Virus record (IMG/VR): IMGVR_UViG_3300020470_001313 | Span: 64,001 to 128,000 of that record | DNA length: 64,000 nucleotides | Strand: one strand, 5' to 3' | From: a virus | Shown here: positions 8,523-15,961 of the stretch, one piece after another | How positions within the stretch are numbered: the stretch's first letter is position 1 | Layout: each line of letters starts with the position of its first letter | The notes under the pieces: model-generated | What the model was told of the DNA's origin: nothing | The model's input: only the letters and a program-made list of their open reading frames with translations | Database searches by the model: none | Position numbers and translations under genes: made by a program

Positions 8523-11500
8523 TTAAGCGAATGAGGATATAGTCAAAGTAGTTACATCATTAGCAGCGACAGCTTCTCCAACCTTGAAGAATCCATCAAC
8601 ATTATCAACAGTAATTAAACTCGTACCCATAGCAGTGATAACTCCAGTAGTACCAGAGGTTGCTCCAGTTACTGTTGCACCAACTTCCATCGTTGTGATA
8701 TCAGCAAGTGCGAAGGTTGCATGAGTGAATACTGTAGCAGTATTAATCGTTGCGTTAGCAAAGATTGTAGCAATATCAATAGTTGAACTATTACCATGAA
8801 TAGCAGATACAGGTATCGTTGCACTGTTACCATGAATTGCAGAAACAGGAATGGTAGCACCATTACCATGAATAGCACCAACAGACAGGGTAGCAGTGCT
8901 ACCGTGGATAGCACCAACCGTAGTTGTTGCATTACCATGAATAGCAGCAACACCAGTAACTGCGTTACCATCTCCAGATCCATCAATTGTGATAGTGTCA
9001 GAAGCAGCATATCCAGTACCATCATTATTAATTACAGCACTTACTACGTGTCCAGATGAATTGGTAGTAATATCAAGAGTCAATCCAGTACCAGAGTTAT
9101 TAGTAGTTGTAGAAACACCAGTTATAGTTTGACTAGCAGGGTATCCAGTACCAGCTACCATTATTGAATTAAGAGTCTCAACACCAGTTGCATTAGCATT
9201 AGTTAATGTGATTGTATCTGATGCAGCATAACCAGAACCATCGTTAACGATAGTCATTCCAGTTACAGAACCAGATCCATTAACAGCAACAGTAACTGTT
9301 AATCCAGAACCAGATCCACCTGTTGTAGTTGCAACTGTGCCAGCAGAATAACCTGAAGCAGCAGCAGTAATAGAACCAAGTGTAGCAACACCAGATGCGT
9401 TAGCATTGGTGATTGTAATTGAATCACTATTAGCATAATTCAAACCATCATTATTAACTGTTACTCCAGTTACTCCACCAGATCCATTAACTGTAATGTC
9501 AACAGTTAAACCAGTACCAGATCCACCTGATGTGGTGGCAATTGCAGATCCCGCAGAATAACCACTACCAGCAGCAGTGATAGTTCCAAGTGTATTAACA
9601 CCAGATGCATTAGCGTTAGCAATCGTAATTACTTCAGAAGCAGCATATCCTGATCCATCATTGTTAATTGAAACACCATCAACAACACCGTTAGTAACAG
9701 TAACGTCAACAGTCAATCCAGTACCTGAACCAGATGATGTTGTTGCAAGAGCAGTACCTGTACCATATCCAGTACCGCCAGATGCAATTGAACCAAGTGT
9801 CTTAACACCAGATGCATTGGCATTGGTAATTGTAATTGTCTCAGCATTAGCATAACCAGATCCATCATCATTAATAGTTACTCCAGTTACGGCACCATTT
9901 CCATCAACTGTAATGTCAGCAGTTAATCCAGTACCAGATCCAGATGCAGTTGTTGCTATTCCAGATCCAGCAGCATAACCTGTTCCAGCAGTTGCAATAG
10001 AACCAAGAGTTCTAACACCTGTTGCATTTGCGTTAACAATAGTGATTGTGTCATCTACAGCATATCCTGTACCAGCAGCATTAATTGCTGCGTTAGTTAC
10101 AACACCATTAGATGTTGTAAGATTAAGTGTTAAACCTGATCCACTTCCTCCAGTAGTTGCAATAGCAGTTCCATTCGCATATCCTGTACCACCAACGAGA
10201 GTATCAACAGTGGAAGCACCACCAGCATTAGCATTAACAACTGTAATTGTTTCTCCGTTAGCGTATCCTGTACCTGGTGCGTTAACTGCAATGTTTGTAA
10301 TATTACCATTTCCATCAACAGTAGTGTCAAAGGTTAATCCAGATCCACTTCCACCTGTTGTAGCAACTCCTGTAGCAGAACTAAATCCACCAACACCACC
10401 TGATAATGTACCCAAGTTCAAGGTAGAAACACCACCAAGGTTAGGGTTAGTGATTTGTAGATTATCTCCAATTAAATATCCTGAACCAGCACCATTTACA
10501 GCAAGAGCAGTTATAGCACCAGCAGCATTGACTGTAGTATCAACTGTCAATCCAGTACCAGTACCACCAGATGTGGCAACAGCAGTTCCAGCACTGAATC
10601 CACCAAGACCACTAGCAGTGATTGATCCAAGACTTACAACAGTTCCTGGTGTAGGATCTCCAGATAGATTAAGTGTTAATGTTGTAGAAGTAGCAAGGTT
10701 GTTTAACATAGCACTAAGTTGTGCGTATGCATTATCAAGTTTTGCTTGAACTCTTGCTTCTGTATAGTAAAGGTTAGTTCCCTCAGCAAGATCAGCAGTA
10801 TCATGGTTGTTAAGGTTTGCTGCCTGAGTAGCAGTTGCAGGAGTAATATCTCCAGTACCATCAAAGGCAGTACCACCAATATTTCTTGCGGTTGCTAAAG
10901 CAGTTGCAGTTGCAGCATTTCCAGAGGTATCCTGATTACCCGCTGTATTAACGCCAGGAAGGTTTATAGCAGCAGTACCATCAAATGATACTCCACCAAT
11001 GTTTCTTGCCGTTTCAAGGGCAGTAGCAGTGTCTGCGTTACCTGTAACATCACCAGTCAAATTACCAGTCACATTACCTGTTATTGTACCACCTGCTTCA
11101 ATATCATCCGTCCAGATCTTACTCCATCTATGAGTAGTCGTTCCTAAAGTATAAGAACTATCTGTGTCAGGTTTAATATTCTTAGAATCTGTAGTTGCAG
11201 CAAGAAGGTTACCAGTTACATTACCAGTAACAGATCCAGTTAGTGATGCTGTAATAACACCAGCAGCAAAGTTACCCGATGCGTCACGAATGACTAGGTT
11301 GTTTGCAGAATTAGCAGAGTTAGATGTAATTGTAATACTTGGATCACCAGCAACACCACCACCATTTGTAATACCAATACCACCACCAGATACCTGAATG
11401 GTACGTTGAGCATAAGTGTTGGCAGCTGTACGGGCAACCAGACCTGTTCCACTCATTCCTGCCAAAGCAGTTATATCTGCATCATCATAGGTAGTAGTAA

Positions 11501-14500
11501 CCGTAAAGTCTGCACTACCATTAACTGAAACCGAACCATTTACTACACCATCAATGGTGAGAGTTCTAGCAGTTTTCCAAACATCAGCAGAAGTTGCGTT
11601 ACCTTGAATACCTGCACCAGCTCCAGCAGCACTTTCAACAGTGATGATATGAGCAGAGAAGTCTCCAGAAGAGTCACGAGCAACAACTGTAGAGTTTGTA
11701 GCAGCAGTTGCAGTTGTCATTCCATCTAACAAGTCTGCGTTAAGGTTAGTAATCTTAACTGTGTTAGGAATAACTAAAGCAGGACCAGAGGAAACTTGTG
11801 AAATTAATTGTCCGTCAACAGTAATAGTACCATCAACGTTTACGTTGTTATCTACATCAAGAGCAGTACCAGCACCAGTAATATTAACTGCACCAACCTG
11901 TAAAGTACCATCAGTTCCACTAAATGTCTCAGCACTATTGGTTGCGTCAGTTAAAAGTCTAAATGTATTGAGGTTGTTATCCCATCCAAGGAATCCAATT
12001 CTTGCAGCAGTATCGTAGTATCTAAACTCAATACCACGATCTAAACCATCATTAGAAGTAGGAGCAGTAGCACCACCAAGAGTCATTACGGGATCTTCTA
12101 CCGTAGTGACCGTACTTTCAACAGTAGTTGTAGATCCTAGTACGGTGAGGTTTCCACCCACTTGGAAATTATTTCTTACTTCAGCATTACCTGAAGATGT
12201 ATCTACAAAGAAACTATTCTGAGTTCCAACAGTATCATATACAATGAAATCTCCACCAGTGTAAAGGTTCTTATCTACTCTTGCACCACCAGCAGTTGTT
12301 AATGATACCTGAGCATCAGCAAAGGATGTAATATCCTTAGTATCTGTGATAGTAATCTTACCAGCAAATGCTGCATCATCAGTCTGAGTTAAAGTTCCTG
12401 TAGTTTCTAAGTTACCATAAACTCTTGCACTACCACCAATAGCAGTGTCTCTAGCAATACCAACACCACCAGTTACTTGTAATGAACCATCAGCAGCATA
12501 AGATCCTGTTAAGGTTTGCTGTGTGTTGTTAGTAATAGATGTAATACCAGTAACACCTAGAGTGTTGTTAATACCAGCAGCAAGAGATACGTCTAGTGTA
12601 CCTGAGATATTTGTATTACCATTATCAGTATCTACTGTAAACTTATCTACAGCACCAGCAGTCTGAATCTTGAACATCTTATTATCAGACTTGACAATAA
12701 GATCATCTTGAATAGTTGTAGCACCATCAACATTTAATGTGCTATCAAAATCAACTGCATCCTGACCATTCAGTGTACCTTTAATAATTGTATTACCAGT
12801 TGAAGATGCAACTGTAAATTTATCAGTAGTTCCAGATCTAACTGCAAAGTCATTATCTACATCTACAGTTCCATTGAACTCTGAATTATTTGTAACTTCT
12901 AATGTTCCACCAATAGTTGTATTACTATCAACGTTAAGAGTTGAATTTAACTCAGTGTGTCCATCAGCAGTTAGAGTACCCTCAATATTAGTATTACCAG
13001 TTACGTTGTCAACAAAGAACTTATCAGTTGTACCATTTCTAACTGCAAAGTCTGCATCTACGTCAACAGTACTATTAAATTCTGTGGCACCAGTTACAGT
13101 TACGTCACCATCTATTTGTACATCTCTACCAAGAGTAGTATCACCATGAACTGTGAATGTACCTACAGTTGCTGAACCAGTTGAAGATATACCAACAACT
13201 GTATTACCAGTAGGACCATCAACACTAAACTTAACTGTATCTCCAGAGTTTTTCTTACCTACAAATAAACCTTCTCCAGTACCAGTACCACCAATGTGTA
13301 ATGAAGTATTAATACCAGCACCACCATATACTCTTAAGTTAGAAGTGTTATGGTTTGAGTAACTTGGAGTGTATGCAGAAACAGAACCAGTACGTAATTT
13401 ATAACGTATTGATAGGTAGTTCCTTAAACCGTAGTTCTCAGTTGCGTCTTCTTGCTGGTTAAAGTCACCGTTAAGATATAAATCACCATTGAATAATACA
13501 TTCTTATCAAAGTATGCACCACCATCTACTCTTAATGCACCATAATCATTATTCTGAATTGAGTGAGGAGCACCAGATAGAATATCAGGATTATCTGTAG
13601 ACTCAAAATGAACAAGACCAGCTACATTTAACTGTGCAGCAGCATCAATATTACCAGTTTGATTTAATACACCACCAATGTCAACATTACCTGTAGTGGT
13701 ATGAAGTGTAGTCTTAGTAGTTCCTGAACCATTCTTAAGTTCTAAAGTCTTAGAAGCACCTTGGAATACAATATTATCATCAAATCTACTTGTACCATGA
13801 GTACGGAAGTTAGTATCTACATCTAACGTACCACCAATATTTACATCTTGTGTAATACCAACACCACCTGCAACTACCAAATCTCCAGTAGTATTAGATG
13901 TTGAGTTAGTATTTGTTGTTAGTTTTAAGTTACCAGCGATGACCCCTGCATCTGTTCCAGAGAATACCTCTGAGGTATTTGTGGCATCGTAGAGGAATGT
14001 GAATGCTCCTGTATGGCCTCCAAGATCAGCGGCCGAATCGTCGTAACCAAAGAATCCAATTTTTGCGCTTGCGTCGTAATATCTGAATTCAACTCCTCTA
14101 TCCTTATTGTCGTCTGACGCAGGAGCAGTATCCCCGCCAAGAGTAACGATAGGATCATCAACAGCAAGAGTGGTTGAATTAACCGTTGTAGTTGTTCCAT
14201 CTACTTGTAAATCTCCACTTACTACTACGGTTCCAGTGATCGCACGATCATCACCTGGATCCAAATACATTGTTGCATTACTAGTAGCAATATAATTGGT
14301 TTGTATTTTTACATCTTCTATATGAACTTTACCAGTTGCTTCAGTAGCATCAATAGTTACAGTATCTTCTGCTTGAATAACAACATTACTTGTTCCAGCA
14401 CCAGTATTAGCAGCAACAAGTGTTAGGTTTCTAGCATTAGCACTGTTCTGAGATATTCCAAGGGTGAAGTTTCCATCACCTGTCTTGCTTATTGTCTGAT

Positions 14501-15881
14501 TAGTTGCTCCATCAAATGTTACATCGGGGTCACTGAAGTAAGATCTGACGTTAATATCAATCTCTCCACTGCCACTGTCGCCAGTATTATTAGCACCGAA
14601 TAGAAGATTCCCTGAAGTATCGTTAATTTTAACATAGTTTAAATAATCAAATCCATGATGTGAACCAGCTACAGTTAATTCCTGATCTAGTTCAAAGTGT
14701 TGTTGCGTGTTGTTATCAGAGAAGGATATTCTATTGTTTTGAAGTTGAGTATTATCAACACCCAAAGCACTGATGCTGACATGACCGTTATCATCAACAT
14801 CAAAATCTTCCTGTGCAAAGGAAGCGAGACCTTTCTGTTCCGTCTTCGCCGCAGCAAGATATCTCCATCCTCCAGTATCAGAAGCATCCGTATGAGTAGG
14901 TGCGCCACCTCCAGACGCAATGCCTGTAATAGCCTGATAAACCTTCGTAGCGTTCTCAATAATATCGTAACGTACATATGTTGTACCTGCATTATAAGCA
15001 GCATACTTACTACCTTCTATTGCAGTAGCAATAGGAATAGTTTCTGCTGAAGTAAATCTACCCCACTGATCAACTGTGAATTGTGTTGTGTTTACAGTTA
15101 TATCAGAGTTAGTTGGAAGATCATCACCACCAACTGAAATAAGAGCTGGAGCATTATATGCACCAACATTAGCAATGAACTCTGCTTCTGATGCAATAGT
15201 TGTATCAATAAGGTCAATAGTTGGGTTACCAGCTACACCACTACCATTAACAATAGAAATCTTACCAGAAGAACCCTGAAGAGTTCTAGGAATCATATTA
15301 CCTGCTGATGCCCTAGTAATCAAACCTGTTGCAGTCATTCCTGCAATAGATGTTAAGTCAGTATCTAATGGTTGTACGTCTGTTAAACCGAGATCAACAT
15401 AAGAAGAAGGTGAAGCACCTGTAGTAATCCTACCTTTCGCGTCTACTGTTACCTTTGTATATTGCCCTGAAGAAGTTGTTGTACCATCATAATGTGGTAA
15501 TGTAGTTAAGATCTGTAATTGTGCCGATATTGATAAGTTAGAAGATCCATCAAATGTGCCCGAACCTGCTAAGTCACTTGATAACTGTATCTGACGTGGG
15601 TTTGCTAGTCTGGATGCTGTAGCAGCATTACCGATAACAGTTGCGGTGATAGATCCTGCACTAAAATTACCGTCTGCGTCCCTTGCGACAAGAGTGTTTG
15701 CTGTGTTAGCAACTGACTCTATCGGTCTAGCATATGGCAGCGTGTTCCAACCCCTAACACCATCACCAATTTTGAATCGGTTTGTATCAAGTTCAATTCC
15801 AAGTTCACCTTGGGCTAACGTTGGGTTTTCGTTTGCCCACTCTTGAGCACCCCCTCGTCTTAGTTGAATTCTATTAGCCAT
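8523..15881 (-). CDS. Long fibre protein (2,452 aa) at the position just upstream of gp13
   Basis: Mtd/hyaluronidase-type N-terminus (RIQLRRG...W...NPTLAQGELGIELDT..FKIGDG); fibre repeats (GNLTV.GTTT.V.S...V.DP...DRG; GNA.TAT.L.TAR.IGG..FDG); C-terminal Gly-rich modules. Confidence 0.88.
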   Translation of the reverse strand: MANRIQLRRGGAQEWANENPTLAQGELGIELDTNRFKIGDGVRGWNTLPYARPIESVANTANTLVARDADGNFSAGSITATVIGNAATASRLANPRQIQLSSDLAGSGTFDGSSNLSISAQLQILTTLPHYDGTTTSSGQYTKVTVDAKGRITTGASPSSYVDLGLTDVQPLDTDLTSIAGMTATGLITRASAGNMIPRTLQGSSGKISIVNGSGVAGNPTIDLIDTTIASEAEFIANVGAYNAPALISVGGDDLPTNSDITVNTTQFTVDQWGRFTSAETIPIATAIEGSKYAAYNAGTTYVRYDIIENATKVYQAITGIASGGGAPTHTDASDTGGWRYLAAAKTEQKGLASFAQEDFDVDDNGHVSISALGVDNTQLQNNRISFSDNNTQQHFELDQELTVAGSHHGFDYLNYVKINDTSGNLLFGANNTGDSGSGEIDINVRSYFSDPDVTFDGATNQTISKTGDGNFTLGISQNSANARNLTLVAANTGAGTSNVVIQAEDTVTIDATEATGKVHIEDVKIQTNYIATSNATMYLDPGDDRAITGTVVVSGDLQVDGTTTTVNSTTLAVDDPIVTLGGDTAPASDDNKDRGVEFRYYDASAKIGFFGYDDSAADLGGHTGAFTFLYDATNTSEVFSGTDAGVIAGNLKLTTNTNSTSNTTGDLVVAGGVGITQDVNIGGTLDVDTNFRTHGTSRFDDNIVFQGASKTLELKNGSGTTKTTLHTTTGNVDIGGVLNQTGNIDAAAQLNVAGLVHFESTDNPDILSGAPHSIQNNDYGALRVDGGAYFDKNVLFNGDLYLNGDFNQQEDATENYGLRNYLSIRYKLRTGSVSAYTPSYSNHNTSNLRVYGGAGINTSLHIGGTGTGEGLFVGKKNSGDTVKFSVDGPTGNTVVGISSTGSATVGTFTVHGDTTLGRDVQIDGDVTVTGATEFNSTVDVDADFAVRNGTTDKFFVDNVTGNTNIEGTLTADGHTELNSTLNVDSNTTIGGTLEVTNNSEFNGTVDVDNDFAVRSGTTDKFTVASSTGNTIIKGTLNGQDAVDFDSTLNVDGATTIQDDLIVKSDNKMFKIQTAGAVDKFTVDTDNGNTNISGTLDVSLAAGINNTLGVTGITSITNNTQQTLTGSYAADGSLQVTGGVGIARDTAIGGSARVYGNLETTGTLTQTDDAAFAGKITITDTKDITSFADAQVSLTTAGGARVDKNLYTGGDFIVYDTVGTQNSFFVDTSSGNAEVRNNFQVGGNLTVLGSTTTVESTVTTVEDPVMTLGGATAPTSNDGLDRGIEFRYYDTAARIGFLGWDNNLNTFRLLTDATNSAETFSGTDGTLQVGAVNITGAGTALDVDNNVNVDGTITVDGQLISQVSSGPALVIPNTVKITNLNADLLDGMTTATAATNSTVVARDSSGDFSAHIITVESAAGAGAGIQGNATSADVWKTARTLTIDGVVNGSVSVNGSADFTVTTTYDDADITALAGMSGTGLVARTAANTYAQRTIQVSGGGIGITNGGGVAGDPSITITSNSANSANNLVIRDASGNFAAGVITASLTGSVTGNVTGNLLAATTDSKNIKPDTDSSYTLGTTTHRWSKIWTDDIEAGGTITGNVTGNLTGDVTGNADTATALETARNIGGVSFDGTAAINLPGVNTAGNQDTSGNAATATALATARNIGGTAFDGTGDITPATATQAANLNNHDTADLAEGTNLYYTEARVQAKLDNAYAQLSAMLNNLATSTTLTLNLSGDPTPGTVVSLGSITASGLGGFSAGTAVATSGGTGTGLTVDTTVNAAGAITALAVNGAGSGYLIGDNLQITNPNLGGVSTLNLGTLSGGVGGFSSATGVATTGGSGSGLTFDTTVDGNGNITNIAVNAPGTGYANGETITVVNANAGGASTVDTLVGGTGYANGTAIATTGGSGSGLTLNLTTSNGVVTNAAINAAGTGYAVDDTITIVNANATGVRTLGSIATAGTGYAAGSGIATTASGSGTGLTADITVDGNGAVTGVTINDDGSGYANAETITITNANASGVKTLGSIASGGTGYGTGTALATTSSGSGTGLTVDVTVTNGVVDGVSINNDGSGYAASEVITIANANASGVNTLGTITAAGSGYSAGSAIATTSGGSGTGLTVDITVNGSGGVTGVTVNNDGLNYANSDSITITNANASGVATLGSITAAASGYSAGTVATTTGGSGSGLTVTVAVNGSGSVTGMTIVNDGSGYAASDTITLTNANATGVETLNSIMVAGTGYPASQTITGVSTTTNNSGTGLTLDITTNSSGHVVSAVINNDGTGYAASDTITIDGSGDGNAVTGVAAIHGNATTTVGAIHGSTATLSVGAIHGNGATIPVSAIHGNSATIPVSAIHGNSSTIDIATIFANATINTATVFTHATFALADITTMEVGATVTGATSGTTGVITAMGTSLITVDNVDGFFKVGEAVAANDVTTLTISSFA
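8691..10649 (-). repeat. Eight ~70-aa Gly-rich beta modules followed by eight 11-12-aa closing segments (nested repeat)
   Basis: GVxTLGSI..AGTGY...TTxGSGTGLTVD...V..NDGSGY...TITI.NANAx x8, then NAxxxVxAIHG-like segments x8. Confidence 0.85.
13925..14200 (-). CDS. Candidate overprinted gene C (+1 frame in the fibre): TM anchor plus coiled coil, 91 aa
   Basis: MEQLQRLIQPLLLLMILSLLLAGILLLRQTTIRIEELNSDITTQAQKLDSLVTTI...; clean heptad pattern; GGAG 12 nt upstream; host-frame GC3 about 34% versus about 11-14% in flanks (hand count). Confidence 0.55.
   Translation of the reverse strand: MEQLQRLIQPLLLLMILSLLLAGILLLRQTTIRIEELNSDITTQAQKLDSLVTTIRPLILEAIQEHSHSSTMPQIPQRYSLEQMQGSSLVT
14519..14635 (-). 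CDS. Candidate overprinted gene B (+1 frame in the fibre): 38-aa single-TM peptide
   Basis: Hand translation MLKLTILQGIFYSVLIILATVAVERLILTSDLTSVTPM; host-frame GC3 13/39. Confidence 0.35.
   Translation of the reverse strand: MLKLTILQGIFYSVLIILATVAVERLILTSDLTSVTPM
14687..15004 (-). CDS. Candidate overprinted gene A (+1 frame in the fibre): amphipathic/basic N-region plus one TM, 105 aa
   Basis: LLRTLRRFIRLLQALRL...RRRRNRK...ILMLMITVMSASVLWVLIILNF; many Arg residues arise from rare GCG/ACG codons in the fibre frame; AAGGT/AGGT 7 nt before the ATGs at 15004 and 14977. Confidence 0.5.
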   Translation of the reverse strand: MLLIMQVQHMYVTILLRTLRRFIRLLQALRLEVAHLLIRMLLILEDGDILLRRRRNRKVSLPLHRKILMLMITVMSASVLWVLIILNFKTIEYPSLITTRNNTLN

Positions 15882-15919: not shown

Positions 15920-15927
15920 TATTTATA
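15920..15927 (-). promoter_or_regulatory. T4-type late promoter TATAAATA
   Basis: Perfect gp55 consensus about 40 nt upstream of the fibre start. Confidence 0.85.
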
Positions 15928-15929
15928 AC

Positions 15930-15956
15930 AAAAAAAGAAGGGGTCATGTGACCCCT
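15930..15956 (-). terminator. Rho-independent terminator
   Basis: AGGGGTC-4nt-GACCCCT stem followed by TCTTTTTTT on the minus strand, just after the stop at 15962. Confidence 0.85.
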
Positions 15957-15961
15957 GACCT

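Follow-up and report, generated by a model that had tools for sequence, protein, structure and literature searches.

The IMG/VR virus record IMGVR_UViG_3300020470_001313 (150.6 kb) contains, in its bases 64001-128000 (the 64,000-nucleotide stretch analysed here, which we refer to as the window), a 7.4-kb fibre gene of the type found in T4-like cyanophages, in the 5' third of which fall three open reading frames (ORFs), A, B and C, each of them read in the +1 frame relative to the fibre. A sequence-only reading had proposed that these form a hidden cassette of overprinted membrane proteins with a role in lysis or exclusion. On balance we think that there is no such three-gene cassette, that A and B are accidental shadow ORFs, and that C too is non-coding, C being read in this way because no selection is apparent on its predicted protein. 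The absence of stops from the lineage of fibre alleles that carries C does appear, from the comparison of relatives, to exceed what drift predicts, and C is kept as a candidate rather than dismissed. The features concerned are the following, with GC3 denoting G+C content at third codon positions:

8523..15881 (-): fibre or 'YadA-domain structural protein' gene, 2452 residues, from the ORF call and its PHROG and domain matches
14687..15004 (-): ORF A, +1 frame, 105 codons, a private accidental open frame (stops in relatives, private GC3)
14519..14635 (-): ORF B, +1 frame, 38 codons, an open frame of chance length (probability of no stop 0.18; ATG lost in relatives)
13925..14200 (-): ORF C, +1 frame, 91 codons, a candidate small ORF open in one clade of fibre-module alleles

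The explanation that we prefer is as follows. A local shift away from A-ending codons opens the +1 frame, and ORF A sits on such a patch, private to this genome and made up of a run of synonymous changes from A or T to G or C (weak-to-strong, W-to-S) that probably came, by recombination, from a fibre allele richer in GC3. ORF C lies within a fibre module that cyanomyoviruses exchange by recombination, and in the allele lineage carried here the +1 frame is open and has stayed so among the descendants.

Codon composition and the three +1 frames

In the +1 frame a stop is possible only where a codon for valine, isoleucine, leucine or methionine ends in TA or TG and a purine comes next. Fewer A-ending Val, Ile and Leu codons in the fibre frame open the +1 frame, and so a peak of GC3 and a +1 ORF will coincide whichever of them is the cause. 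The lesson of method is that a GC3-rich patch and a long open +1 frame are one phenomenon, and their coincidence is therefore no evidence of coding. By the same token, the observation that the few NTA codons of these intervals stand before pyrimidines is correct, but it is true by construction of any open +1 frame.

The sequence-only reading located and measured the three ORFs accurately. The coordinates of the three ORFs and their shared frame hold in the ORF list, and the hand-counted GC3 of the fibre frame is right, with 31/107 codons in A, 13/40 in B, 31/93 in C and 15/107 in the gap between B and C (428/2453 for the whole gene). The clustering of rare codons is likewise borne out, as GGC and GGG make up 2/10 of the glycine codons of A, 3/5 of those of B and 4/12 of those of C, against 6/308 elsewhere. 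With the fibre protein and the codon usage of the gene taken as given, the +1 frame would be free of stops with a probability of 0.011 over A, 0.18 over B and 0.0036 over C. In the whole 150.6-kb genome, 61 stretches of 60 codons or more are open in the +1 frame, and among these C ranks 15th and A 23rd by improbability, 14 stretches being less probable than C, and none of A, B and C is an outlier on this single-genome evidence. A fourth +1 stretch of the fibre gene (9031-8669, minus strand, 120 codons, P=0.008) is the gene's longest and lies in its repeat-rich C-terminal part. Outside the window, +1 open stretches of 107-152 codons in other genes (G000:C1 13720-13264, 43162-42841 and 59196-58857) have P below 2e-4, far less probable than A or C; either the codon-usage null is over-dispersed or some of these stretches deserve equal comparative scrutiny.

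Shadow ORFs of genes with biased composition have been treated by single-genome tests of ORF length (Schlub, Buchmann and Holmes 2018, PMC6188560), and the present frames resemble them in most respects: they are long +1 frames in a real gene, their openness is set by host residues and third-position composition, their products are rich in Leu, Ile, Val and Gln, they do not stand out among the genome's 61 stretches, and A and B are lost in relatives. What is unlike a plain shadow ORF is that C stays open clade-wide despite substantial synonymous turnover. The products had been described as organised, each with a predicted single transmembrane segment, unlike those of the usual shadow ORFs; fibre codons rich in ACT, GTT and ATT are expected to give, when read in +1, products that are hydrophobic and Leu-rich.

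Across 20 reference Kyanoviridae (63-73% protein identity) the observed numbers of +1 stops were 49 against 54.3 expected over A (0.90) and 59 against 61.3 over C (0.96). A dependence of GC3 on protein conservation was considered as a cause of the GC3 peaks and rejected, the correlation existing at the level of windows only (Spearman 0.41 in the query and 0.50 in the others) with no per-site effect and none outside A, B and C.

ORFs A and B in close relatives

For A and B the relatives compared were five distinct close types from IMG/VR and metagenome scans, 82-86% identical over A. Each of the five has two or three in-frame stops in A, one of them at the position of the 'RRRR' run, and ORF A is on this evidence an accident private to this genome. 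The sequence-only reading had itself named stops in close homologues as an outcome that would count against it; they are present for A and absent for C, which is open in 48/48 relatives of at least 78% identity. It had also named a GC3 rise brought in from a higher-GC donor, and the rise over A has this character, being private to the query (fibre-frame GC3 0.29 against 0.11-0.14 in the five relatives) and consisting largely of W-to-S changes (18 of the 21 third positions at which the query differs from all five). About half of these W-to-S changes carry the base of GC3-richer Synechococcus phages (7/11 for S-SSM4 and 7/14 for Syn19), and we infer that the patch was probably recombined from a GC3-richer fibre allele, itself not among the sampled sequences. 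The donor was not found, nothing closer than 86% being present among the sequences searched.

Third positions differ between the query and its nearest relative (L021) at 0.31 in A, compared with 0.125 in B, 0.14 in C and 0.175 over the gene. Divergence raised in this way is the opposite of dual-coding constraint, and the synonymous constraint expected of an overprinted cassette is seen neither here nor, as described below, in C. The opposite strand tells a similar story:

14697..15050 (+): codon-aligned antisense ORF, 117 codons, over the patch of A, from the ORF list

This antisense frame is open because the fibre frame there is free of TTA, CTA and TCA codons, which points to codon composition as the cause for A. 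A private patch such as this one can create a 105-codon ORF in one step.

ORF B is too short to need explanation, and it is likewise an accidental shadow ORF. Its ATG is missing in three of the five types, which have ATT/ATA-type codons instead (L101/L102, L103 and L105), and the B interval of P-SSM4 has six stops. With stops in A in all five relatives and the start of B lost in most of them, the idea of a three-gene cassette has to be given up.

ORF C: stop avoidance and product constraint

The comparison for C drew on 131 unique sequences of the 93-codon interval, pooled from all fetched loci. The frame is open for 85-91 codons in 78 of them, essentially one clade, and on the tree of the 131 sequences there are only two switches between an open and a broken frame, so that defining the group by openness excluded few sequences. 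The C-carrying clade consists of Prochlorococcus and Synechococcus myovirus fibre genes, including those of the cultured P-SSM7, P-SSM4 and S-RIM8-like phages (the open group takes in the P-SSM7, P-SSM4, S-RIM50/8, S-B64 and S-RIM14 types). Below 72% identity the frame is broken, with 1/24 and then 0/37 open. Of the 20 reference genera, 13 show 2-6 stops inside the interval, at the expected rate.

The reading of C as non-coding is drawn from the behaviour of the host frame and of the predicted product. Synonymous diversity shows no depression in C (0.169, with 0.188 in the rest of the module downstream, where the frame has stops), the fibre-frame proportion of synonymous differences (pS) is 0.252 against 0.286, and in the +1 frame the ratio of non-synonymous to synonymous differences (pN/pS) is 0.75 against 0.94-1.05 in the flanks. 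No purifying selection on the product was detected among clade representatives, whose identity in the +1 frame (58%) compares with 54% in the +2 frame, and only 2 of the 91 columns of the product alignment are invariant. Such undepressed synonymous divergence and +1 amino-acid change would be unusual in a real gene for a frame that is open across 4-fold divergence reaching 0.8; at C this divergence has a mean of 0.37 and a maximum of 0.81 between representatives of the open group, and a mean of 0.36 in the broken group. A BLOSUM62 test for conservative +1 replacements gave P=0.009-0.010 with coarse strata, a significance lost on stratification by codon degeneracy (P=0.074), and P<0.001 on the reference-phage columns of A, an unclean control because the reference phages themselves have much of the A frame open; we give the test no weight either way.

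Conserved residues of the fibre dictate both the start codon of C and its hydrophobic stretch. The ATG derives from a fibre Asp-Gly (GAT GG) and is equally frequent in the two clades (44/53 broken, 69/78 open), nine of the 78 open sequences being without it, and the hydrophobic stretch is the +1 reading of the fibre's own Thr/Val run. No Shine-Dalgarno sequence is conserved at C within the clade, and neither an internal promoter nor, among the matches examined, a free-standing homologue was found. Profile searches covering 5.8 and 1.84 billion proteins gave two and seven matches, respectively. Three of these, checked on their contigs, turned out to be this embedded frame, and one more combines fibre-frame and +1-frame segments in its own sequence; the other three were not examined. 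The four matches sit on short contigs or on fragmented or frameshifted fibre assemblies such as LC629465.1. In some public assemblies, L265 (LC629465.1) among them, the fibre gene is split into many small ORFs, and the database 'proteins' (P0003 and P0004) are chimeric between the fibre and +1 frames; chimeric records of this kind can pass for independent homologues of a shadow ORF. Adjacent conserved parts of the fibre gene, moreover, carry similarly long +1 and antisense frames in other clades, so that frames of this length arise readily.

A set of observations on stop codons weighs against this reading, and it is for these that C is retained as a candidate. The frame is fully open in 44/44 unique relatives at 84-100% identity, 4/4 at 78-84% and 6/22 at 72-78%, where codon usage predicts only 3.6, 0.5 and 1.2; in the last bin 20/22 are open for at least 85 codons, most of those not fully open ending about five codons early. 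Among relatives of at least 84% identity, 59 of 199 possible synonymous alleles are seen, yet not one of the 13 stop-making alleles (P=0.0087), whereas downstream of C 6 of 12 stop-making alleles are seen in the same relatives. In the open group (n=78) the corresponding figures are 114/183 alleles present (62%) and 0/11 stop-making (nominal P=1.3e-5), and in the broken group 5 of 8 stop-making alleles are present. Parsimony counts of third-position changes give far smaller P values, which recombination inflates, and they are not relied on. Codons ending in A make up 45% of the 4-fold non-NTN codons in C but are absent at the at-risk Val, Ile and Leu positions, while one 'safe' Val codon is GTA in 25/25 sequences. 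The avoidance is also specific to the frame, as the +2 frame over C has eight stops, and to this copy of the domain, as the +1 frame of a paralogous copy is closed by eight stops in 110 codons:

11880..12140 (-): paralogous second copy of the same fibre domain, used as an internal control; its +1 frame has stops

A site-specific codon preference at the at-risk Val/Ile/Leu columns was tried as an explanation and rejected, since phages with a broken frame use NTA there as expected (27 against 24.2).

It is for these reasons possible, though in our estimation the lesser prospect, that C alone is a genuine overprinted gene of one cyanomyovirus fibre-allele clade, A and B being accidents. It would then encode a protein of 86-91 residues, produced by internal initiation on the late messenger RNA of the fibre gene, with a hydrophobic N-terminal helix followed by a polar helix and a sequence under little constraint; it might act at a membrane late in infection. 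The more specific statement, that C encodes a small single-helix membrane protein expressed late from the fibre transcript, we hold tentatively and regard as rather doubtful. In favour of a gene, besides the avoidance of stops, are the coincidence of the unusual codon usage with the ORF and the form of the predicted products. Taken over 19 residues, hydropathy peaks at 2.04-2.57 in every clade product at or above 84% identity, with a charged residue inside the peak segment in 16/25, and AlphaFold2 predicts for C a single long helix (residues 2-67) with a disordered tail, the mean predicted local distance difference test (pLDDT) score being 88-95 in the blocks covering residues 11-60. This predicted helix is taken to be uninformative for function, and only about 60 residues lie beyond the hydrophobic stretch.

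C has weak matches to PHROG families of Rz-like spanins (739/214/89). The query matches at E=0.006 (17.8 bits) and the best of 38 relatives at E=0.0004; matches occur in 13 of the 38, cover the hydrophobic helix and about 30 residues more, and have no counterpart among ten other shadow ORFs of the window, for which PHROG gave nothing. The phrog_739 model, for its part, found matches in 14/14 control genomes when the genome search was run with a lax cut-off (E up to 10). C has no Pfam match above threshold and no PDB match, its PHROG matches being spanin- and holin-like at noise level only, and A and B have no Pfam or PHROG matches. The products of A, B and C have no Cys, and none of them can therefore be an o-spanin lipoprotein; no lipobox ORF was sought beyond these three. 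Neither does C belong to a lysis cassette, as it lies wholly inside the fibre gene, upstream of which, past two small ORFs that were not family-scanned, comes an ORF of 2484 residues. The proposed lysis or exclusion role is thus unsupported: family matches are not significant, and both a lipoprotein partner and a setting among lysis genes are lacking.

The known embedded genes provide instructive comparisons. Like lambda Rz1 within Rz, C is a small ORF that falls entirely within a larger late gene, in its +1 frame, and its predicted product, an N-terminal hydrophobic helix followed by a polar helical part, is like an i-spanin in plan. The lambda Rz/Rz1 pair lies beside the holin and endolysin genes, however, and Rz1 is a lipoprotein with a lipobox Cys, whereas here the host is a fibre gene and there is neither Cys nor partner; the sequence similarity of C to spanins is at noise level and its polar part is short. 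Like gene E of phiX174 (within gene D), C would be a single small membrane protein, as predicted, in the +1 frame of an essential gene, but E has demonstrated expression and a genetic phenotype, while no constraint on the product of C was detected. A parallel in the nature of the argument is HIV-1 asp, which has been argued for mainly from clade-specific avoidance of stop codons and for which independent detection of the product has been reported. Here too the main evidence is an overlapping frame that is stop-free in one clade, with weak or no amino-acid constraint; asp differs in being an antisense frame of a retrovirus and in the reported detection of its product.

What remains is a 91-codon frame that is stop-free through a whole allele clade, cultured phages included, without the usual constraint on a product. 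If C is translated, it adds an overprinted gene to the T4-like cyanophages and would give cyanomyovirus structural genes their first described embedded gene, with a candidate function in envelope disruption or exclusion. If it is not, it can serve to calibrate how much stop avoidance a non-coding frame may show in fibre genes that recombine and vary locally in composition. From T4-like cyanophages, the T4 genes for lysis inhibition (r genes) have been reported missing (PMC2984593).

A purely speculative alternative, to which we attach very little probability, is that the open frame of C serves a programmed +1 frameshift that yields a truncated fibre of about 560 fibre residues followed by up to 91 alternative residues. 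This would account for the avoidance of stops without a start signal of its own and with little constraint on the product, but a +1 stop (GTA|G) directly before the ATG in most clade members means that ribosomes could shift only within C, none of the known slippery motifs was identified, and the uniform synonymous diversity gives no evidence of a conserved nucleotide element. Least credible of all, and in our view almost certainly wrong, is that A, B and C together are three single-pass membrane proteins with their N termini inside, acting as holin or spanin in lysis or in superinfection exclusion: the shared frame, the late transcript, the hydrophobic stretches and the noise-level spanin matches of C are outweighed by the loss of A and B in relatives and by the products' compositional origin, want of Cys and dearth of family matches set out above.

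The fibre gene, its mosaic module and its promoter

The fibre protein matches phrog_697 with its residues 1-744, over the full length of that family (1371 bits), and has an Mtd_N domain at residues 5-42. Its homologues are annotated in 20 Kyanoviridae as the structural protein, YadA-domain protein or tail fibre of T4-like cyanophages, and the nearest isolate has only about 72% DNA identity to the gene. Within the gene, a segment of much higher identity can be delimited:

13700..14200, to about 13230 in some relatives (-): mosaic high-identity module, from the identity table and best matches by segment

This module is 84-98% identical in DNA to about 20 IMG/VR contigs and to P-SSM7, sequences that are otherwise 60-70% identical. 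ORF C begins the module, which extends well beyond the stop of C. The right-hand boundary varies between phages, the mark of a fibre domain that is exchanged by recombination. Where the module begins, a 46-nucleotide stretch (about 14173-14218, minus strand) has 91% identity to the tail-fibre gene of the Pelagibacter phage Kolga, which hints at a motif common to phages of unrelated hosts.

Long alternative frames appear, from the relatives compared, to be a habit of the fibre gene. In the region homologous to A and B, part of the gene's conserved core, the Synechococcus phages WH25-B, S-RIM2 and S-CAM8 have two adjacent stop-to-stop +1 frames of about 98-109 codons (L005:986-1585, L019:968-1603 and L009:950-1576; about 15030-14400 in the window), and WH25-B and S-CAM8 also have a codon-aligned antisense frame of about 103 codons there. 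Across the 20 reference phages +1 stops are depleted in these two frames (13 against 34.1 expected, and 13 against 53.0), and one stop between them is conserved.

A late promoter had been noted upstream of the fibre gene, and its motif is indeed present:

15920..15927 (-): T4-type late-promoter motif TATAAATA, 39 nucleotides upstream of the fibre ATG

The window has four copies of TATAAATA where 6.6 are expected by chance, so that the motif alone is weak evidence, and none occurs inside the fibre gene upstream of A, B or C. Directly upstream of the fibre's copy, at 15931-15957 (-), is a terminator-like, G+C-rich hairpin followed by a run of T.

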